Source: a virus
Taxonomy: Duplodnaviria > Heunggongvirae > Uroviricota > Caudoviricetes
Virus record (IMG/VR): IMGVR_UViG_3300029623_000287
Direction: 5' to 3' (one strand)
DNA: 9,743 nucleotides
A program made the position numbers and the translations under genes. The notes beneath the pieces are model-generated. The model worked only from the letters and a program-made list of their open reading frames with translations. It searched no databases and was not told where the DNA came from. Below are positions 1 to 9,743 of the stretch, one piece after another. Each line of letters opens with the position of its first letter. Within the stretch, counting starts at the first letter, position 1.

Positions 1-2375
1 GTAAAAATTTCTGGCGTGCTTAAAGATGGCACAGGAAAACCAGTACAGAACTGCACCATTGTGCTGAAGGCCAGACGAACCAGCAGCACGGTGGTGGTGA
101 ACACGGTGGCCTCTGAAAATCCGGATGAAGCCGGACGTTACAGCATGGATGTTGAGCATGGTCAGTACAGCGTCACCCTGCTGGTTGAAGGTTTTCCGCC
201 TTCACATGCCGGGACCATTACCGTCTATGAAGGTTCCAGACCAGGTACGCTGAATGATTTTCTCGGTGCCATGACGGAGGATGATGTCCGACCGGAGGCA
301 CTGCGCCGCTTTGAGCAGATGGTGGAAGAAGCGGCACGCAACGCTGAAGCCGCCTCTCAGAGCGCAGCGGCGGCAAAGAAATCCGAAACTGCAGCGGCAT
401 CATCGAAGAACGCGGCGAAAACCTCAGAAACGAATGCAGCTAACAGCGCACAGGCGGCAGCGGCCTCGCAGACTGCATCGGCAAACTCCGCAACAGCAGC
501 TAAAAAATCAGAAACCAACGCGAAAAATAGCGAGACAGCCGCAAAGACGAGCGAAACCAACGCAAAGTCCAGCCAGACGGCAGCGAAGACCAGCGAAACG
601 AATGCTAAAGCCAGTGAAACTGCGGCAAAAAACAGCCAGGTTGCAGCAGCCCAAAGCGAGAGCGCGGCAGCCGGTTCTGCGACTTCAGCAGCTGGATCAG
701 CAACTGCTGCGGCTAACAGCCAGAAAGCTGCGAAGACGAGTGAAACTAACGCAAAGTCCAGCCAGACGGCAGCGAAGACCAGCGAAACGAATGCCAAAGC
801 CAGTGAAACTGCGGCGAAAAGCAGTCAGGATGCAGCGGCCCAAAGCGAGAGTGCCGCAGCCAGTTCTGCAAGCGCGGCGGCTGCTTCTGCTACTGCATCA
901 GCTAACAGTCAAAAAGCAGCAAAAACCAGTGAAACCAACGCAAAGGTGAGCGAAACAGCGGCTGCGAACTCAGCGAAAGCATCGGCAGCAAGCCAGACGG
1001 CAGCTAAAGCAAGCGAAGATGCAGCCAGAGAGTACGCAAGCCAGGCTGCGGAGCCGTATAAATATGTCTTACAGCCGCTGCCTGATGTGTGGATACCATT
1101 TAACGATTCGCTGGATATGATTACGGGCTTTTCGCCATCATATAAAAAAATTGTTATTGGTGACGATGAAATAACGATGCCTGGCGACAAGATTGTTAAG
1201 TTTAAACGTGCATCGAAAGCAACCTATATTAACAAATCTGGTGTGCTGACAGAGGCTGCCATTGACGAGCCACGATTTGAACGTGATGGCCTGCTTATTG
1301 AGGGGCAAAGAACAAACTACATGCTCAATTCGGAAAGCCCTGCCAGTTGGGGGCGATCGTCAAATATGGATGTGCCCGAAACAGGGACGGATAATTTTGG
1401 TTTTACCTATGGAAAGTTTGTCTGCAACGATTCTCTGATTGGGCAAACCTCAGCCATTAATATGGCATCAATTGCTGCAACAAAGTCAGTTGATGTCTCA
1501 GGCGATAATAAACACGTGACAACCTCATGTCGTTTTAAAACAGAACTGCAGGTAAGGTTGCGTATCCGGTTTGATAAATATGACGGTAGCGCAACAACTT
1601 TTCTTGGTGATGCGTATATTGATACACAAACGCTTGAAATTAATATGACAGGCGGTGCTGCCTCAAGAATTACAGCGAGAGTCAGAAAGGACGAAGCTAC
1701 CGGATGGATTTTTGCAGAGGCAACAATTCAGGCAATTGATGGGGAGTTAAAAATAGGCTCTCAGATACAGTATTCTCCTAAGCAGAGCGGGGCAACCGTA
1801 TCTGGTGACTATATTTATCTGGCCACCCCACAAGTAGAAGATGGGCCTTGTGTATCATCTTTTATTATATCAGGAGCGACGGCGGCGACCCGCGCAAGCG
1901 ATATAGTTACAGTTCCAATTAAGAATAATCTTTATAATCTTCCTTTTACGGTTCTTTGTGAGGTACATAAGAACTGGTATAAAACGCCNNNNNNNNNNNN
2001 NNNNNNNNNNGTGTTTTTGATACCGGCGGTCATCAAACCGGAGCGGCTATTATTCTTGGCTTCGGTCGTTCAACAGATTACGACGGATTTCCTTATTGTG
2101 ATATAGGTTTGGCTAACAGACGGGTAAACGAAAACGCATCGCTTGAAAAAATGGTTATGGGGATGCGTGTAAAGTCAGATCAGTCTACGTGCTCAGTAAG
2201 TAACGGGCGTATATCCAGCGAAAAGAAAGCCACATGGTCCTATATTCAGAACTCCGCAATTATCCGTATTGGAGGCCAGACTACAGCCGGGTTGCGTCAT
2301 TTATTTGGTCATGTCAGGAATTTCAGAATATGGCACAAGGCATTGACTGATGCTCAGATGGGGGAGTCAATCTAA
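1..2375 (+). CDS. Lambdoid prophage side tail fiber protein (Stf-like N-terminus, Ala/Ser/Thr-rich repeat shaft, LamG-like distal domain); 5' end at or just beyond the window edge; interrupted by a 22-N gap
   Basis: Frame 1 is open from nt 1 (VKISGVLKDGTGKPVQNC..., recalled from memory as matching the N-terminus of lambda Stf-type side tail fibers; GTG at 16 is an alternative in-window start). Residues ~110-340 are a low-complexity shaft of AAKTSETNAK-type repeats. After the gap the open frame continues in frame 3 (from 2013) to TAA at 2373-2375. The C-terminus ...GHVRNFRIWHKALTDAQM resembles the closing strand motif of LamG/concanavalin-A-like jelly-roll domains, and FTVLCEVHKNW just before the gap resembles the opening of such a domain, so the domain appears to span the gap and both sides are most likely one gene. 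Confidence 0.8.
541..960 (+). repeat. In-frame tandem repeat, 189-nt period (63 aa), two near-identical full units (541-729, 730-918) plus a partial third, nested in a longer low-complexity Ala/Ser/Thr-rich coding tract (~330-1030)
   Basis: Direct reading: gcaaagacgagcgaaaccaacgcaaagtccagccagacggcagcgaagaccagcgaaacgaatgc... at 541 recurs at 730 with a few substitutions and partially again at 919. The protein units read AAKTSETNAKSSQTAAKTSETNAKASETAAK(N/S)SQ...ANSQKA. Confidence 0.8.
1989..2010. other. Run of 22 N (assembly gap or masked bases) inside the tail fiber coding region
   Basis: Literal n characters at 1989..2010. The flanking open frames differ (frame 1 before, frame 3 after), consistent with an arbitrary gap length. 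Confidence 0.95.
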
Positions 2376-2656
2376 TGAAAGATTTAACACTCAAATTTGC
2401 AGACAGGGCCGACTTTTCGGCCTTTATGGATAGCATTGGCTATTATGATGACGAGTCGATGCAGGATGATATTCTTATTGACGTGATAGGTAACGTGTAC
2501 AAAGAAACCGGAGAACTGACTGAAGATGGCGAACCGGTATGTGTTAAGGAAGATGGATATTTTGTAAACGTGCGCATCATTAATGATGCAAAAAAATCGT
2601 CAATATTCGATGAATACGCGGTTGTAGTTGAACATCAACTTCGTGGCTGGATGTGA
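2375..2656 (+). CDS. Hypothetical small acidic protein (93 aa), translationally coupled to the tail fiber gene; possible fiber accessory or assembly protein
   Basis: Its ATG overlaps the tail fiber stop by one base (TAATG at 2373-2377). A GGGGAG Shine-Dalgarno site lies 8 nt upstream. The protein is rich in Asp/Glu with no obvious transmembrane segment. No family is recognised from sequence alone. Confidence 0.55.
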   Translation: MKDLTLKFADRADFSAFMDSIGYYDDESMQDDILIDVIGNVYKETGELTEDGEPVCVKEDGYFVNVRIINDAKKSSIFDEYAVVVEHQLRGWM

Positions 2657-2665
2657 GGGAGACAA

Positions 2666-3370
2666 ATGGCTACATCGACAGTAATTCCAGGAGACATCAC
2701 CACGTTAAAGGGAGATGTCAGTAAAGCCAAGGAAGATATTTCCTCAATTAACGGAAAAGTATCAACGCTTCAGGCTGATATGACCAGTGCAAAGCAGGAT
2801 ATCAGCACCAGATACACAAAAACTGAAGTTGATAATAAGCTGAAAAACAAACTGGAAGTGAACGCTCTGGAAAGCGGTCGTTATGGTGGAGATTTTTACC
2901 CGTTGACTGGCCGTGAAGCGTTTTATTTGTGGGGATTGGGCACGACTACAGCGGCGGCAAACCTTTATCTTAATCCTGACCCTGCAATTTCGTCTGTGCT
3001 GCGGTCAACATCGTCTATCCGCTATAAACATTCAGTAGAGACGATAGATTCAGAGCACGCCGATCTCATTTTCAGGATGCGCCCTGTGTGGTACAGGTCG
3101 CAATGCGAAAATGACAGGCGCGATTGGGGATTCTATGGATTGATTGCCGAGGAAGTAGGAGAAATTGCCCCCCAGTTTGTACACTGGCGATCAGCTAACG
3201 AAGATGATGCACCGGAAGCTATTTCCAGCAATGGCCTTGTTGCCGAAGGTGTAATGTACGAACGTCTGGTTGTTCCACTGATTCACCATATCCAGAAACT
3301 GACTGAAAGATTTGATGAACTTGAGTCAGAATTGAAGTTGTTATCAACTTCCCGAAGCGATATCGGATAA
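2666..3370 (+). CDS. Tail-fiber-like protein (234 aa): N-terminal coiled-coil repeats plus C-terminal intramolecular chaperone / peptidase S74-like autoprocessing domain
   Basis: A GAGGGAGA Shine-Dalgarno site lies 4-5 nt upstream of the ATG. The N-terminus has heptad-like repeats (DITTLKGDVSKAKEDISSINGKVSTLQADMTSAKQDIS). The C-terminal half carries the motif series recalled for S74 chaperone domains of phage fibers and tailspikes: a Ser...Lys pair spaced i/i+5 (SSIRYK), RPVWY, GLIAEEVGEIAPQFV, and a terminal helix (LIHHIQKLTERFDELESELKLL). Confidence 0.65.
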   Translation: MATSTVIPGDITTLKGDVSKAKEDISSINGKVSTLQADMTSAKQDISTRYTKTEVDNKLKNKLEVNALESGRYGGDFYPLTGREAFYLWGLGTTTAAANLYLNPDPAISSVLRSTSSIRYKHSVETIDSEHADLIFRMRPVWYRSQCENDRRDWGFYGLIAEEVGEIAPQFVHWRSANEDDAPEAISSNGLVAEGVMYERLVVPLIHHIQKLTERFDELESELKLLSTSRSDIG

Positions 3371-3380
3371 AGGAGGAGTA

Positions 3381-3674
3381 ATGGATATAACACCTTTTCT
3401 TCATGCGCTTTGTGCTGTGGCTGCGCAGGTACTGATTGGTCTTTTTACCGGAAACTGGGTTTACGGGGCGATAGCCGGTTGTACGTTCTTCATTGCGCGT
3501 GAACACACCCAGGCAGAATATCGCTGGATTGAAATGTTCGGGCATGGCAAGCGAATGAATATGCCGTGGTGGGGCGGTTTTGATCCGCGCGCGTGGGATG
3601 TGGCAAGCCTGATGGATTTTGCTGTGCCGGTGGTGGCGTGTCTGCTGCTCTGGCTGTTGGTTAATCGTGGGTGA
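3381..3674 (+). CDS. Small integral membrane protein (97 aa), function unknown; last + strand gene before the convergent sit operon
   Basis: A strong AGGAGG Shine-Dalgarno site lies 4 nt upstream of the ATG. Hydrophobic segments at roughly residues 8-38 and 78-94 flank a Trp/Arg-rich loop (EYRWIEMFGHGKRMNMPWWGGFDPRAWD). Stop TGA at 3672-3674. Confidence 0.6.
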   Translation: MDITPFLHALCAVAAQVLIGLFTGNWVYGAIAGCTFFIAREHTQAEYRWIEMFGHGKRMNMPWWGGFDPRAWDVASLMDFAVPVVACLLLWLLVNRG

Positions 3675-3765: not shown

Positions 3766-4623
3766 CTAATTGGGTGATAACAGATCCTGTGTATGGGAGT
3801 TTCCCTTTTTGCGTGCGTTGATGCTGGTAACGGCAAACGTCATGATGAACAAAACCGCGAATAAGACGACAATCGTCGGAGCTGGTGCGCTGTCGATAAA
3901 AAAGGACAACCAGACACCAGTCATTGACACTATTACCGATATGCCAGTCGCCAGTAGGAGCGCAATGTGAAAGCGTTGTGTCAGGAGTACCGCAATGGCG
4001 CCAGGCGCAATGAGCAGAGAAATGGAGAGAATGATACCTACCGCTTTCAGCGTCGCCACAATGGTCAGAGAGACCATGCACAGCAGCCCATAATGCAGCC
4101 ATCTCGTATGCAAACCGCTTACCTGCGCCTGTTGATAATCAAAGCTGAACAGCAAAAAATCCCGCCATTTTACGCTAATAACAAGTGTAACCAGCCCGGC
4201 AATAATCATCGTCTGGATTATATCGCCGATGGTTATCCCGAGCATGTCGCCGAAAAGAATATGGTCAAGATGTACGTCTGGTTTGACTGCAATATACAAG
4301 ATCAGACCTGCGGCAAACATGCCAGAAAAAACAATCCCCATCACTGTATCTTGCTTGATTCGGCTGTTGTCTTTCAGGTATCCCGTCGCCACCGCGCAGA
4401 ATACTCCGGCGACGAATGCCCCTGTAGCCAAAGGTAACCCCAGAATCCAGGCAAGCACGATGCCAGGAAAAACCGCATGACTCATCGCGTCACCCATCAG
4501 TGCCCAACCTTTCAGGACCAGAAAGACCGACAGCAGCGCACAGGGTATGGAAACTAACAGTGAAATCAGCAGTGCGTGACTCATAAAGGTGAACTGCAGT
4601 GGCTCCAGTAATAATGCCATCAT
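3766..4623 (-). CDS. sitD: Mn2+/Fe2+ ABC transporter permease SitD
   Basis: 285-aa polytopic membrane protein, paralogous to the upstream permease. Its ATG overlaps the sitC stop by 4 nt (ATGA). It is the last gene of the four-gene operon. Confidence 0.92.
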   Translation of the reverse strand: MMALLLEPLQFTFMSHALLISLLVSIPCALLSVFLVLKGWALMGDAMSHAVFPGIVLAWILGLPLATGAFVAGVFCAVATGYLKDNSRIKQDTVMGIVFSGMFAAGLILYIAVKPDVHLDHILFGDMLGITIGDIIQTMIIAGLVTLVISVKWRDFLLFSFDYQQAQVSGLHTRWLHYGLLCMVSLTIVATLKAVGIILSISLLIAPGAIAVLLTQRFHIALLLATGISVIVSMTGVWLSFFIDSAPAPTIVVLFAVLFIMTFAVTSINARKKGNSHTQDLLSPN

Positions 4624-5477
4624 GAGCGATCCTCCAGCGCCTTATGTGCACGCCGACGATTTGCCAAAAGCCCATGGGTGGGCGCAAAGACAAATGCTAA
4701 AAGAAACAGCAGTGTCTGCGCCACCACGATGATTCCACCTGTCGCGCCGTCCAGAAAGTAACTGACCCACGCGCCGAGGAAACTGGTTACACTGCCAATA
4801 GTTACAGCAATCATGAGCAGGCGGGGAAAACGATCGGTTAACAACCATGCTGTTGCACCGGGAGTCACCACCAGACAGATCACCAGAAAGGCACCAACCG
4901 TTTGCAGCGCCGCAACGGTCGAAACCGACAGCAGGGTGAAGAAGAGGAGTTTTAATCTGCCCGGATGCAATCCAATAGCACGGGCGTGATTCTCGTCGAA
5001 AAAGGTCACCATAAGATCTTTCCATTTGAAAAAAAGCACGATGATCGAGAGAATGCCAATGATAGTGAGTTGCAGGATATCCGCCGGATCGATTGCCAGA
5101 ATATTGCCCAGGACGATGGTCTGAATGTTCACAGATGTCGGGTTCAATGACACCATAAACAGCCCCAGGCCAAAAAAGGACGAGAAGATCAGGCCGATGA
5201 TGGCATCTTCTTTTAAGCGGGTGCGTTGGTTAAGAAACAGCATGCTGCCCGCAGCCAGTCCGCCGGAAAAGAAGGCTCCCAGAGAAAACGGAAGCCCCAG
5301 CATATATGCCCCCGCAACACCCGGGACAATAGAGTGCGACAACGCATCGCCAATCAGCGACCAGCCTTTTAGCATCAGATAGCATGACAGGAAAGCGCAG
5401 AGACCGCCGACCATCGCCGAGACCCACATCGCATTGAGCATATATTCATAGCTGAAGGGTTCCAGTAGCACGTTCAT
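4620..5477 (-). CDS. sitC: Mn2+/Fe2+ ABC transporter permease SitC
   Basis: 285-aa polytopic membrane protein of the ABC-3 (metal-type) permease family. Its ATG overlaps the sitB stop by 4 nt. Confidence 0.92.
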
Positions 5478-6301
5478 CTTTCTTCCCTCTGCACCGCTGA
5501 CGGTCGATGAGCCACAAAAGGGCGTTCATCGTCAGTAATAATGCTTTCTTCCGAGCCGTTAAGTGTGACATGGCGCAGTACGCCGCTAAAAGCCAGCTCC
5601 AGGTTCTCGGCTGTAAAAGTGGTGTCTGTCGGCCCGCTTGCCAGGACGGTGCCTTTGACCATGACCGTATAATCGCAAAATGTCGTGACGGATCCGAGAT
5701 TGTGTGTTGAGACAAGCATCGTTTTGCCTTCCGCGCGTAACTCCCTCAACAGGCTGATGATTTTGGCTTCGGTTTTCACATCAACGCCAGTAAAAGGTTC
5801 ATCCAGCAGGATCACATCACCCTGCTGTGCAATCGCTCTCGCCAGAAAGACGCGTTTCTTTTGTCCACCGGAAAGCTCGCCGATTTGTCGATGGCGAAAA
5901 TTCACCATATCGACACGTTCCAGCGCATCGGTGACAATTTGACGATCCCTCTTTTTGGCGATACGCAACATACCCATATGCCCATAGCGGCCCATCATCA
6001 CCACATCTTCCACCAGTACAGGAAATGACCAGTCAACCTCTTCTGACTGAGGGACGTAGGCAACCAGGTTTTTCTGTAACGCCTGTCGCGTGGGAATACC
6101 CAGAACAGATATCTTTCCGCTGGTCAGACGCACAAATCCCATAATCGCTTTAAACAACGTCGATTTTCCGGAACCGTTTACCCCAACCAGAGCGGCAATA
6201 GATCCACTTGGTACTGTGAAGGATGCATCGCGCAGTGCTGTGTGCCCGTTACGCCAGGTGACAGTAACATCATTAACGACAATGCCTGCAGATTGCATCA
6301 T
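5474..6301 (-). CDS. sitB: Mn2+/Fe2+ ABC transporter ATP-binding protein SitB
   Basis: Walker A ([10 protein letters not shown]), ABC signature (LSGGQKKR) and Walker B (VILLDEPF) are all present. The start overlaps the sitA stop (TAATGATG). Confidence 0.95.
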
Positions 6302-7215
6302 TATTTCTCCCTTTTCCCGGCTTTAATTCCCTGTACCAGCGTACTGGTAGTAACCTTAAGAAGGTCGATATACGTCGGTACCGGGCCGTTTTCTGTGCTC
6401 AGTGAATCGACATAGAGCACACCGCCGTAGTGTGCGCCGGTTTCACGCGCAACCTGACGCGCTGGTTTATCGGAAATCGTACTCTCGCTAAAGACTGCCG
6501 GGATATGATTTTTCTTAACTATATCAACAACCTTACGTACCTGCTGCGGTGTTCCTTGTTGATCGGCATTAATCGGCCACAGATAAAGCTCTTTTAGCCC
6601 CAAATCGCGTGCGAGATAAGAAAAAGCCCCTTCACTGGTGACCATCCATCGCTGATTCTCAGGGAGTTCCGTAATCTGCTTACGCAGGGGGGCAAGGGTT
6701 TGGGTAATCTTGGCTTTATAAGTATCGGCATTGCGTTGGTAGGTTTGTGCATTTGCCGGATCGTATTTTATCAACGCATCACGAATATTATCGACGTAAA
6801 TCAGAGCATTATCTGGCGACATCCATGCATGGGGGTTAGGTTTGCCCTCATAGGGTCCTTCGGTGATCCCTACAGGCGTCACACCCGAAGAGACAATTAC
6901 TTCTGGAACCCCATTGAGATGCTGGTAAAAGCGTTGGAACCACAATTCCAGATTCATACCATTGGCGAGAATCAGTTGTGCCCCCTGCGCACGTTTAATA
7001 TCGCCAGGGGTAGGCTGATACTCATGAATTTCTGCACCAGGCTTGGTTATGGATGAGACTTCTGCAGCATCTCCTGCCACGTTTTTGGCCATATCCGCGA
7101 TGATGGTAAATGTTGTAATGACCTTGAATTTTTCAGTTGCACTTGCCTGAAATGCGATCGAGCAGGTGAGTGCGAGGCCCCCCAAGAGCATGGTTACTTT
7201 TTTTATTGAGTGCAT
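6301..7215 (-). CDS. sitA: Periplasmic Mn2+/Fe2+-binding protein SitA (cluster A-I substrate-binding protein)
   Basis: 304 aa with an N-terminal signal peptide ([26 protein letters not shown]). The sequence matches SitA as I recall it (EKFKVITTF..., [12 protein letters not shown]..., NPHAWMSP...). It is the first gene of the operon, directly downstream of the Fur and MntR boxes. Confidence 0.95.
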
Positions 7216-7247
7216 AATTTAGTACCTATAGTGAGCAAAATTAGAAC

Positions 7248-7269
7248 AAACATAGCAACGGCTATGTTT
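7248..7269 (-). promoter_or_regulatory. MntR-type operator (perfect 9-4-9 palindrome AAACATAGC-aacg-GCTATGTTT) in the sitA promoter region
   Basis: The perfect inverted repeat is read directly, 33-54 nt upstream of the sitA ATG. It matches the MntR box architecture recalled for enterobacterial mntH/sitA promoters. Confidence 0.7.
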
Positions 7270-7291
7270 TATAACATAACCTATACAAAAT

Positions 7292-7310
7292 GAAAATGAT
7301 TATCATTAAC
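7292..7310 (-). promoter_or_regulatory. Fur box in the sitA promoter region
   Basis: gaaaatgattatcattaac matches the 19-bp Fur consensus GATAATGATAATCATTATC at 16 of 19 positions, including the central AATGATxATCATT core. It lies 77-95 nt upstream of the sitA ATG. Confidence 0.7.
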
Positions 7311-7655
7311 AACTTTGGGGCCCAAAACAGGGATTAGGTTGTTTCCTACTGGCGACGTGTTATTGAGGAAAAAAGTAAGGCAGCTAGTAGGCTTTGAAAT
7401 AACGTTTTGCGGTTGGCTGATGCAATTTCGAGAGTGCATGTATTGAATAATTTTCGACCGTTATTGTTTTCACGCGTAACACCATGAAAAGACTACTTAT
7501 CTGTTGGGGTGTTTTTTGGGGCATATATGGGACAGAAATAGGCCACAGATAGATAGTAAGATCGAACTCAGGATGCTTTTGAAAAAATGTAACTATCTGA
7601 AAAAACCTAGAAAGTGCCAAGGAAACCACAGGATGAGAAAAAACACTTGTGAATT

Positions 7656-8939
7656 ATGGACTTCCAGTTATATTCGCTCGGCGCAGCGTTAGTGTTTCAT
7701 GAAATATTTTTTCCTGAATCATCAACGGCAATGGCGTTAATTCTGGCAATGGGAACCTATGGTGCAGGTTATGTGGCACGTATTGTCGGAGCATTTATTT
7801 TCGGCAAAATGGGCGACAGAATAGGGCGTAAAAAAGTGCTCTTTATTACCATCACCATGATGGGGATCTGTACCACCTTAATTGGTGTGTTACCGACTTA
7901 TGCACAAATTGGTGTTTTTGCCCCCATCTTGCTGGTGACGCTGCGTATTATTCAGGGGTTGGGTGCAGGTGCGGAAATTTCCGGTGCCGGTACGATGCTG
8001 GCGGAATATGCGCCAAAAGGTAAGCGCGGAATTATCTCCTCATTTGTGGCTATGGGAACTAACTGCGGAACCCTGAGCGCAACGGCAATCTGGGCCTTTA
8101 TGTTCTTCATTCTCAGTAAAGAGGAACTGCTGGCGTGGGGATGGCGTATACCTTTCCTGGCGAGCGTTGTCGTGATGGTCTTTGCTATCTGGTTGCGTAT
8201 GAATCTGAAAGAAAGCCCGGTCTTTGAGAAGGTTAACGACAGCAACCAACCGACAGCAAAACCTGCACCTGCTGGTAGCATGTTCCAGAGCAAATCCTTC
8301 TGGCTGGCAACAGGGCTGCGTTTTGGTCAGGCTGGTAACTCCGGTTTAATTCAGACTTTCCTTGCAGGCTATTTAGTGCAGACGTTATTGTTTAACAAAG
8401 CAATTCCAACAGATGCATTGATGATCAGTTCGATTCTCGGCTTTATGACCATTCCGTTCCTTGGTTGGTTATCCGATAAAATTGGTCGCCGGATCCCGTA
8501 TATTATTATGAATACCTCTGCGATTGTGCTGGCGTGGCCAATGCTTTCTATCATCGTAGATAAAAGCTATGCCCCGAGCACCATTATGGTTGCACTGATT
8601 GTGATTCATAACTGTGCGGTGCTGGGATTATTTGCTCTGGAAAACATTACCATGGCAGAAATGTTCGGCTGTAAAAACCGCTTTACCCGGATGGCCATTT
8701 CTAAAGAAATTGGTGGTCTTATCGCTTCCGGTTTTGGTCCTATCCTGGCGGGTATTTTCTGCACCATGACGGAATCCTGGTATCCGATCGCCATTATGAT
8801 CATGGCATATTCAGTGATTGGTTTAATCTCTGCGCTGAAAATGCCAGAAGTGAAAGACCGTGATTTAAGTGCGCTGGAAGACGCTGCGGAAGATCAACCG
8901 CGTGTTGTAACAGCTGCGCAACCTTCCAGAAGTCTTTAA
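7656..8939 (+). CDS. ydfJ: MFS transporter, metabolite:H+ symporter (MHS) family, YdfJ-like; N-terminally truncated relative to full-length family members (possible pseudogene)
   Basis: 427-aa 11-12 TM protein. The first ATG at 7656 is preceded in frame by TGA at 7650-7652 and has no Shine-Dalgarno site. The protein begins inside the conserved TM1 motif (MDFQLYSLGAALVFHEIFFP, compared with ProP ...EWFDFGVYGFVAYALGKVFFP), so about 25-30 N-terminal residues appear to be missing. The conserved GDRIGRKK loop 2-3 motif is present. Confidence 0.88.
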   Translation: MDFQLYSLGAALVFHEIFFPESSTAMALILAMGTYGAGYVARIVGAFIFGKMGDRIGRKKVLFITITMMGICTTLIGVLPTYAQIGVFAPILLVTLRIIQGLGAGAEISGAGTMLAEYAPKGKRGIISSFVAMGTNCGTLSATAIWAFMFFILSKEELLAWGWRIPFLASVVVMVFAIWLRMNLKESPVFEKVNDSNQPTAKPAPAGSMFQSKSFWLATGLRFGQAGNSGLIQTFLAGYLVQTLLFNKAIPTDALMISSILGFMTIPFLGWLSDKIGRRIPYIIMNTSAIVLAWPMLSIIVDKSYAPSTIMVALIVIHNCAVLGLFALENITMAEMFGCKNRFTRMAISKEIGGLIASGFGPILAGIFCTMTESWYPIAIMIMAYSVIGLISALKMPEVKDRDLSALEDAAEDQPRVVTAAQPSRSL

Positions 8940-8948
8940 ATCCTCAAT

Positions 8949-8979
8949 CCCTTCTCTTACCGGAGAGGGGATTTTTATT
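8949..8979 (+). terminator. Rho-independent terminator downstream of the ydfJ-like gene
   Basis: A 9-bp GC-rich stem (cccttctct / ggagagggg, two G-U wobbles) with a 4-nt loop is followed by atttttatt, starting 10 nt after the TAA stop. Confidence 0.6.
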
Positions 8980-9027
8980 CATATAACAAAACATGTAGCT
9001 TGCTATATTTAATTTTAAGGAATTGTT

Positions 9028-9743
9028 ATGGGAAATCATTTGTTATCAGCAAAAGCGACGCTCCCTGTTTATGATCGTAATAACCTGGCCCCAAGAATTG
9101 TTCATTTAGGCTTTGGTGCATTTCACCGTGCACATCAGGGCGTGTATGCCGATATTCTTGCTACGGAACATTTCAGTGACTGGGGATATTATGAGGTCAA
9201 CTTAATCGGCGGCGAACAGCAAATTGCCGATTTACAACAGCAAGATAATCTTTATACCGTTGCGGAAATGTCGGCTGATGCGTGGACGGCTCGCGTCGTT
9301 GGCGTCGTTAAAAAAGCCTTGCACGTACAAATAGATGGCTTAGAAACCGTGTTGGCTGCGATGTGTGAACCGCAAATCGCGATTGTCTCTCTGACAATCA
9401 CCGAAAAAGGGTATTTCCACTCTCCGGCGACCGGACAGTTAATGCTTGATCACCCGATGGTCGTTGCCGACGTGCAAAATCCCCATCAGCCGAAAACTGC
9501 AACAGGGGTGATTGTTGAGGCGCTGGCTCGCCGTAAAGCGGCAGGACTTCCCGCATTTACCGTCATGTCATGTGACAACATGCCAGAAAACGGTCATGTT
9601 ATGCGTGACGTTGTCACTTCCTATGCGCAAGCCATTGATGTAAAACTGGCACAATGGATCGAAGATAACGTGACTTTCCCATCAACAATGGTGGACCGTA
9701 TTGTGCCCGCAGTGACAGAGGATACGCTGGCGAAAATCGAACA
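9028..9743 (+). CDS. ydfI: Mannitol dehydrogenase family oxidoreductase (YdfI-like, UxuB-like mannonate/polyol dehydrogenase); 3' end beyond the window
   Basis: ATG at 9028 with an AAGG Shine-Dalgarno site 7 nt upstream. The N-terminal [14 protein letters not shown] motif is the dinucleotide-binding signature of long-chain mannitol dehydrogenase family enzymes. The frame is open to the window end. Confidence 0.88.

Follow-up and report, generated by a model that had tools for sequence, protein, structure and literature searches.

ydfJ is a standard locus for prophage integration in Escherichia coli, and the prophages found there have a defined att sequence of 18/19 bp, established by sequencing attP (PMC8112680). 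The gene is the insertion site of Qin in E. coli W, K-12, B and Crooks (PMC3032704), and in K-12 the presence of Qin costs ydfJ 28 codons and its promoter (PMC6379469). Rac in ttcA, and e14 and phage 21 in icd, likewise have their attachment sites inside a coding sequence and alter one end of the gene (PMC6379469). However, e14 and phage 21 carry a replacement for the 3' end of icd, which stays functional (PMC6379469; phage 21 annotation), whereas the phage studied here brings no replacement for the 5' end of ydfJ, but only a stop codon.

Here, we analyzed a window of 9,743 nt (the whole stretch of DNA presented) that runs from the tail fibre genes of a prophage into ydfJ and its downstream neighbour. 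K-12 Qin and the window are alike in their attachment site, their breakpoint, the 1284-nt remnant of ydfJ (hereafter, ydfJ') and the phage-derived TGA ATT ATG junction that precedes it, and positions 7392-9000 of the window are matched by K-12 at about 96% identity. Beyond 7392, however, K-12 has ynfT, ydfK, pinQ, tfaQ and a partial tail gene, and its prophage is defective, whereas the window continues with sitABCD and another tail-fibre module, and the equivalent prophage of AR_0017 (see below) is complete, about 47 kb long, with int and xis. The first-pass annotation had compared the locus to Qin and ydfJ in K-12; this holds for the site and for the split, but not for the identity of the element, as only 7392-7655 is common to K-12 Qin. 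Qin was rejected as the identity of the element on these grounds: the homology to K-12 ends at about 7392 and gives way to sitABCD and other tail-fibre genes, not to ynfT, ydfK and pinQ.

Two other groups of phages resemble the window, each in a different part. The STEC/EPEC prophages known as PPydfJ and the free phages HannyBb, Tritos and mEp460_ev081 have the same att core and a homologous P arm; these three free phages, together with PhiR42_1, match positions 7392-7660 at 86-87% identity, directly beside their integrase genes. Their attR-side cargo differs, however, being a DinI-like gene and DUF1076 (NleG-type) genes in the O157/O111 prophages and a DNA invertase with small ORFs in HannyBb, whereas the window has sitABCD. 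The second group, formed by phage 21, Perceval (of LF82) and ev207, likewise has a sit module between the side tail fibre genes and attP, but uses other attachment sites; phage 21 has a different attP and a different integrase, and its annotation shows an icd-like fragment at attP. In Perceval, sitABCD has been described as a moron (PMC9928086).

Results and Discussion

Organization of the window and proposed origin of ydfJ'

The features of the window are as follows (one per line; positions are those of the window).

1-3674, plus strand: late-region end of the prophage, formed by the side tail fibre gene, which runs off the start of the window and ends at 2375, and the three ORFs below (Pfam; AR_0017 annotation)
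2375-2656, plus strand: ORF that follows the side tail fibre gene
2666-3370, plus strand: ORF for a tail-fibre domain protein
3381-3674, plus strand: last ORF of the late region
3766-7215, minus strand: sitDCBA, iron/manganese ABC transporter operon, prophage cargo (ORFs; PGAP names in AR_0017; same position in phage 21)
7216-7391, minus strand: control region upstream of sitA, boundary of the sit cargo module (sequence; match to sit phages)
7392-7649, plus strand: right end of the prophage, the P arm of attP (match to K-12 Qin, most occupied genomes and free phages)
7650-7664, no strand assigned: attR core, TGAATT-ATGGACTTC (four-way attP/attB/attL/attR alignment)
7656-8939, plus strand: ydfJ', the 3' part of the MHS-family MFS transporter gene ydfJ (ORF call)
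8946-8973, plus strand: terminator-like hairpin and T run directly 3' of the ydfJ stop codon (consensus match only)
9029-9743, plus strand: ydfI, 5' part (mannitol dehydrogenase family), natively the next gene downstream of ydfJ (sequence; synteny and annotation in genomes L001, L002 and L003)

The side tail fibre gene is interrupted by a run of N at 1989-2010, and the region matches the Pfam family phage_tail_N with E = 1.2e-63. A scan of the whole window against Rfam gave no family at threshold.

We consider it highly probable that a lambdoid phage integrated into ydfJ and left a pseudogene that no longer functions but could revert. The data below establish the split, the anatomy of the att sites and the frequency in the population; the state of the remnant is inferred. 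In this reading, a temperate phage recombined, through the site-specific reaction of a tyrosine integrase, with an attB located within codons 26-32 of ydfJ. Integration split the gene, and the window shows attR, with the P arm at 7392-7649, the core at 7650-7664 and, from codon 29 on, ydfJ. Codons 1-28, together with the native ribosome-binding region and the rspAB transcription unit, presumably now lie at the opposite end of the prophage, as they do in AR_0017. The ORF that remains starts at the native Met29, preceded by an in-frame TGA derived from the phage. Nothing in the data contradicts the integration event, and only the term "non-functional" carries uncertainty (see below).

The junction is an attR site

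Four sequences were aligned: attP from the free phage HannyBb, attB from NCTC9113, attL from AR_0017 and attR from the window. In HannyBb, attP lies beside the integrase gene and reads ...ACACCTGTGAATT-ATGGATTTC|AAGAGTCAT. The bacterial site, attB, reads ...GCGCTTGAATTTATGGATTTCCAGTTAT, and the sequence across the unsplit site is ...CTTGAATTTATGGATTTCCAG... The attL of AR_0017, ...GCGCTTGAATTTATGGATTTC|AAGAGTCATTGA..., joins a bacterial left side to a phage right side, and the attR of the window joins a phage left side to a bacterial right side; the left half of the window junction together with the right half of the AR_0017 attL gives the attP of HannyBb exactly. Common to attP and attB is TGAATT(T)ATGGATTTC, with TT in attP and attR versus TTT in attB and attL. 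The crossover therefore occurred to the right of that run, within ATGGAYTTC (7656-7664). It follows that the ATG of the window ORF is the native Met29, inside the recombination core, and that the in-frame TGA (7650-7652) is phage DNA.

The bases leading into the ORF are ...CAC TTG TGA ATT ATG GAC TTC CAG..., so that the stop codon placed two codons upstream of the start by the first-pass annotation is indeed found, as the TGA at 7650-7652 (codons TTG TGA ATT ATG). That annotation had its ORF begin at 7640, a coordinate that takes in the junction; the ORF proper runs from 7656. The junction thus shows the P arm, the shared core and the bacterial B' of an attR, has a complementary attL and matches the attP of a free phage. 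The core also agrees with the published 18/19-bp att sequence (PMC8112680).

Leftward of the core, the sequence of the window is common to K-12 Qin and most of the occupied genomes from about 7392, and to the O157/O111 prophages from 7502/7517. A repeat search for arm-type integrase sites in the P arm returned nothing beyond short, A-rich repeats (GAAAAAAC) and a single imperfect inverted repeat, which are too weak to be called as such sites.

Intact ydfJ has 28 additional, conserved codons

In the prophage-free genome of NCTC9113 the gene order is rspA-rspB-ydfJ-ydfI, and ydfJ has 455 codons and starts 57 nt after rspB. A ydfJ gene of 455 codons, again 57 nt after rspB, is also found in an O104:H4 strain, in an ST131 strain and in BLK16, an engineered, prophage-deleted derivative of BL21(DE3). 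The ydfJ' ORF of the window, with an ATG start, 427 codons and a stop (1284 nt), corresponds to codons 29-455 plus the stop of the intact gene, and its product is separated by a single residue from residues 29-455 of the NCTC9113 YdfJ. This near-identity and the presence of ydfI downstream place the window ORF in the YdfJ orthologue group, but the ORF is neither full-length nor adjacent to rspB: it has 427 codons, and what lies upstream is phage DNA and sitA. The idea that the element to the left had inserted into ydfJ is borne out by this comparison, since the intact, prophage-free gene follows rspB and the window diverges from it at the phage att core; the breakpoint falls at that core, with 28 codons absent.

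The equivalent 1284-nt stretch is labelled by PGAP as "ydfJ, incomplete, missing N-terminus" (a pseudogene) in AR_0017, K-12 and O157:H7; because the same stretch is annotated in all three, the feature is not a product of chance. The ydfJ' product scores 453.5 bits against TIGR00883 (cut-off, 443.45; intact YdfJ, 462.2) and so passes the threshold for the MHS family (metabolite:H+ symporters, TC 2.A.1.6), and it matches Pfam MFS_1 with E = 2.3e-37. Motif A of the MFS, G-x-x-x-D-R-x-G-R-K/R, lies in the loop between TM2 and TM3; the ydfJ' translation has it as GKMGDRIGRKK, at residues 78-88 in the numbering of the intact protein. As for the substrate of YdfJ, K+ is given (with an asterisk) in a table of one paper, which cites a TCDB entry (PMC10971958); a literature search on the L-gulonate/RspA/RspB pathway as a clue to the substrate returned nothing relevant from the collection of papers searched.

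Gene callers give a 427-residue protein in many assemblies (cluster P0002, with 3723 sequences), as would be the case if ydfJ natively started at this Met and the longer annotation were an over-extension. We give next to no credence to this reading. A search of 5.8 billion proteins found orthologues with 82-85% identity in Citrobacter, Enterobacter, Leclercia, Lelliottia and Superficieibacter, whose lengths range over 454-470 residues and in most cases over 455-460. Instead of starting at the same Met, they keep the 28 extra residues, of which residues 8-28 (R..T.DLV.AA.SGWLGTALEF) are nearly invariant. Moreover, the TIGR00883 alignment begins at residue 23 of the long form, and the sequence upstream of the Met in the window matches phage attP and not the chromosome. 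A native short N-terminus is refuted by the orthologue conservation, the attP match and the TIGR00883 alignment taken together.

The cut falls within the first conserved helix

The first-pass annotation had the ORF begin inside the first transmembrane helix, and the coordinates of the TIGR00883 and MFS_1 profiles agree with this. TIGR00883, a model of 400 positions, spans residues 23-418 of intact YdfJ over its full length (profile positions 1-400), and aligns with the window protein only from profile position 7. For Pfam MFS_1 the alignment starts at profile position 2 with intact YdfJ versus position 33 with the window protein, and alignments to the ShiA and ProP models begin at about positions 37 and 40 of those models. 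The sequence across the cut is ...SGWLGTALEF|MDFQLYSLGAALVF, and its left side is almost invariant in the enterobacterial orthologues. From the profile coordinates, therefore, the family's first conserved helix is interrupted by the cut, ...GWLGTALEF|MDFQLYSLGAALVF. With these profile starts and with 28 conserved residues gone, the window ORF does not code for a complete 12-helix core including TM1. The remnant is predicted to lack about the first half of transmembrane helix 1, together with the cytoplasmic N-terminus that precedes it.

Structure prediction gives a hint only: an AlphaFold2 model of intact YdfJ, built on an alignment of 12 sequences and used for its secondary structure alone, has a helix at residues 10-45, with a mean pLDDT of 39.7 that is low because such an alignment is too shallow. 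A sequence search of the PDB for a solved relative in the MHS family gave none at E <= 1e-5. Kyte-Doolittle hydropathy (19-residue window) is moderate, 0.5-1.1, over residues 17-47 and does not delimit TM1.

In AR_0017, the missing 5' end is kept at the other end of the prophage

The window holds the attR side only, attL and the integrase gene being outside it, and the far side was examined in AR_0017, which is 99.9% identical to the window over positions 7200-9000. Between rspB and ydfJ', AR_0017 carries a lambdoid prophage that is complete and measures about 47 kb; int and xis are on its rspB side, and the tail fibre genes and sitABCD on its ydfJ' side. Its attL keeps all 84 nt of the ydfJ 5' end, as part of a 34-codon ORF, MTIEK...EFMDFKSH-stop, that follows rspB, and its int and xis are full-length, the 431-residue integrase being 97% identical to that of HannyBb. 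In the genome from which the window derives, attL, int and xis are presumably arranged as in AR_0017, and the element is apparently a complete lambdoid prophage carrying sitABCD.

The first-pass annotation had proposed that the element inserted into and replaced the 5' end of ydfJ. Insertion is what we find, but replacement is not: in AR_0017 the 5' piece is displaced by about 47 kb, to attL. Because the 5' end survives there, precise excision would rebuild the 455-codon gene; indirect evidence for such a restoration comes from the engineered BLK16, whose ydfJ is intact.

Many of the prophages at ydfJ are defective, and K-12 Qin itself has a partial tail gene and frameshifted genes; as attL is not in the window, the 5' end could in principle have been lost through deletion or illegitimate recombination of a decaying prophage and not through clean site-specific integration. 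We regard such a history as very improbable. The junction coincides precisely with the attP core of the free phage HannyBb; AR_0017 keeps the complementary attL with its 84 nt and full-length int and xis, which refutes the deletion for that genome; and removal of the prophage in the BL21 derivative BLK16 leaves a ydfJ gene that encodes a protein identical to the YdfJ of wild prophage-free strains. Site-specific integration into ydfJ thus remains the preferred reading.

Expression and possible function of the remnant

Is the remnant, which may have lost its function through the integration, nevertheless expressed? The absence of a Shine-Dalgarno sequence, as claimed in the first-pass annotation, was confirmed: within the 25 nt preceding the ydfJ' start, the strongest anti-SD pairing has -3.1 kcal/mol, at an unusable spacing of 21 nt. 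However, the native ydfJ start of intact genomes is no better (-2.9 kcal/mol), and because it is equally poor the missing Shine-Dalgarno sequence is weak evidence and argues little against translation. Upstream of the ORF, a consensus promoter scan from sitA to the ATG gave no plus-strand promoter-like site. Over positions 7150-9050 the promoter and terminator scan found three promoter-like sites versus a mean of 4.0 in shuffled sequences; the sole plus-strand site, at 7647-7674, overlaps the start codon and is uninformative.

Several observations favor a 427-residue protein, of about eleven and a half helices, that is still translated from the ATG at 7656 and retains a function open to selection. 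The reading frame is undisrupted in all 14 occupied genomes examined (the window, AR_0017, K-12, O157 and ten further Qin-type genomes), and pairwise dN/dS is at most 0.064, including pairs in which both genomes are occupied. Among 11 Qin-type genomes there are 55 synonymous versus six non-synonymous segregating sites, five of the latter in the C-terminal tail, and K-12 and BL21, both natively occupied by Qin, differ by 11 synonymous changes and no non-synonymous one. In K-12, ydfJ RNA is detected by RNA-seq and is differentially expressed (PMC11430063), and a ydfJ deletion was azithromycin-resistant in one high-throughput screen (PMC9405208).

The RNA-seq and screen results are, however, indirect, and could reflect polar or read-through effects. 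Moreover, half of TM1 and the cytoplasmic N-terminus are gone, and the near invariance of the N-terminal 28 residues across genera implies that they are needed. As for the pattern of substitutions, the divergence of the prophage end and that of ydfJ' are uncoupled in Qin-type genomes (4 versus 35 differences in L018; 20 versus 0 in L014), which shows recombination. Recombination with intact alleles, present in 37% of the genomes (see below) and able to supply variants already filtered by selection, or repeated independent insertions can therefore explain the synonymous excess without selection on the remnant, and recombination with intact alleles is the simpler explanation of variation dominated by synonymous changes. 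The dN/dS and polymorphism data, although a strong signal, are confounded by recombination and were not counted as evidence of function.

A functional 427-residue protein is thus, in our judgement, unlikely. It is similarly unlikely that the remnant is kept by selection, be it as a shortened transporter or, in the case of excision-competent prophages, as one state of a reversible switch on the rspAB-ydfJ-ydfI sugar-acid locus. We infer instead that the remnant is a non-functional pseudogene that can be restored by excision. For annotation, this means that the ORF should be described as what is left, at the 3' end, of a ydfJ gene split by a prophage, a pseudogene that excision could restore, and not as a shorter transporter.

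Occurrence of the split in E. coli

A megablast search with positions 7200-9000 of the window matched 5,394 of 5,426 complete E. coli genomes, and the left ends of the matches fall into discrete classes at about 7392, 7502/7517 and 7650, NCTC9113 belonging to the 7650 class. When a 301-bp probe spanning rspB-ydfJ was used, the unsplit junction was recovered in one piece from 2,009 of the 5,426 genomes (37%); in most of the others the probe matched in two segments, 1-160 and 142-301, whose overlap is the core. With the window, 3,174 genomes share at least 100 nt at the end of the phage P arm, and 1,987 have the K-12 Qin-type end (ydfK-ynfT-ydfJ'). Few sites in E. coli receive prophages as often as ydfJ. 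Since the site is unsplit in only about 37% of the genomes, the event is hardly informative about this strain in particular; the observation holds but is unremarkable, a prophage-split ydfJ being already known and very common.

The sit operon as cargo at the prophage end

Less common is the pairing of the sit virulence/fitness operon with an integration module specific for ydfJ: sit abuts ydfJ' directly in only 18 of the 5,426 genomes. Positions 7216-7471 are common to phage 21, Perceval and ev207, all carriers of sitABCD, at 94-95% identity. Because this segment matches the sit phages and 7392-7660 matches the phages that use the ydfJ att site, the prophage end is a mosaic that joins a module of sit cargo to an att module for ydfJ. 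The junction at 7650-7664 is the exact right-hand boundary of the prophage, and marks sitABCD here as phage cargo.

The control region upstream of sitA has two motifs discernible in its sequence, a palindrome (7248-7269) and an AT-rich box (7291-7309), which we take to be putative sites for MntR and Fur. A "terminator" called by the scan at 7269-7248 is this same palindrome and was discarded as such.

Modular structure of the prophage right end

The segment 7392-7471 is common to two groups of elements: the sit-carrying phages, which match the window over 7216-7471, and the phages with a ydfJ-type att site together with Qin, which match it from 7392 onwards. In sequence, this shared segment looks like a recombination joint between two mosaic modules. 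Eleven genomes with a K-12 Qin-type end were also compared; across them, how far the Qin right end (from ydfK through the P arm, i.e., the right end of the prophage) has diverged is uncoupled from the divergence of the adjacent ydfJ', the 3' part of the split ydfJ gene. One of these genomes (L018) has four differences in the Qin right end versus 35 in ydfJ', and another (L014) has 20 in the Qin right end versus none in ydfJ'. Because the two segments diverge independently, the comparison indicates recombination breakpoints close to the prophage/ydfJ' junction.

The sitABCD cargo and the att junction

The features of the right end considered here are as follows:

Features between the tail-fibre genes and ydfJ' (window coordinates)
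3381-3674, ORF of 97 residues, flanked by the tail-fibre genes on one side and by sitD on the other
3766-7215, sitABCD on the minus strand, encoding an ABC transporter for iron/manganese, cargo of the prophage right end
7248-7269, perfect palindrome AAACATAGC-AACG-GCTATGTTT, upstream of sitA
7291-7309, motif GAAAATGATTATCATTAAC, upstream of sitA
7504-7692, ORF of 62 codons with a TTG start, in a different frame, spanning the att junction and ending within ydfJ'
7599 and 7637, repeat GAAAAAAC, P arm (region 7546-7644)
within 7546-7644, inverted repeat CAGATAGATA / TAACTATCTG, P arm

The same sitABCD module is found in the lambdoid phages 21, Perceval and ev207, but these use other attachment sites, and sit directly adjoins ydfJ' in only 18 of the 5426 complete E. 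coli genomes surveyed. The palindrome upstream of sitA was called a 'terminator' by the scan; in view of how sit and mntH are regulated, it is a candidate MntR-box-like element, and the neighbouring motif is presumably, on the same grounds, a Fur-box-like candidate. The small ORF preceding sitD matched no Pfam or NCBIfam family. ORFs equal to it in size are found at the corresponding place in AR_0017, a near-identical E. coli genome with the complete prophage, where the product is a hypothetical protein, and in phage 21, whose annotation gives a putative membrane protein with two TM segments.

In the P arm, the direct repeats, of which the free phage HannyBb has a third copy, and the inverted repeat may possibly represent integrase arm-type or IHF sites, the motifs being too short to call. 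The ORF across the att junction is probably spurious; a hypothetical CDS is likewise annotated across the attP of HannyBb. At the opposite end of the AR_0017 prophage (attL; L004 47150-47290), the displaced 5' end of ydfJ persists as a 34-codon ORF (MTIEKHERSTKDLVKAAVSGWLGTALEFMDFKSH*), which starts 57 nt after rspB and continues into phage DNA.

The side tail fibre gene

Within this gene, 22 consecutive N occupy positions 1989-2010 and give it a split, frameshifted appearance (ORFs 16-2106 and 2109-2375). Since the counterpart of this run in AR_0017 is 14 nt long and the gene there is uninterrupted, with 790 codons in one ORF, the N run probably creates the split artificially. Long tandem repeats of low complexity, with abundant Ala, Ser, Thr, Glu and Lys (...AAKTSETNAKSSQTAAKTSETNAKASETAAK...), are present in the N-terminal half of the protein (about 350-1050), and these repeats produce spurious long ORFs in other frames and on the opposite strand.
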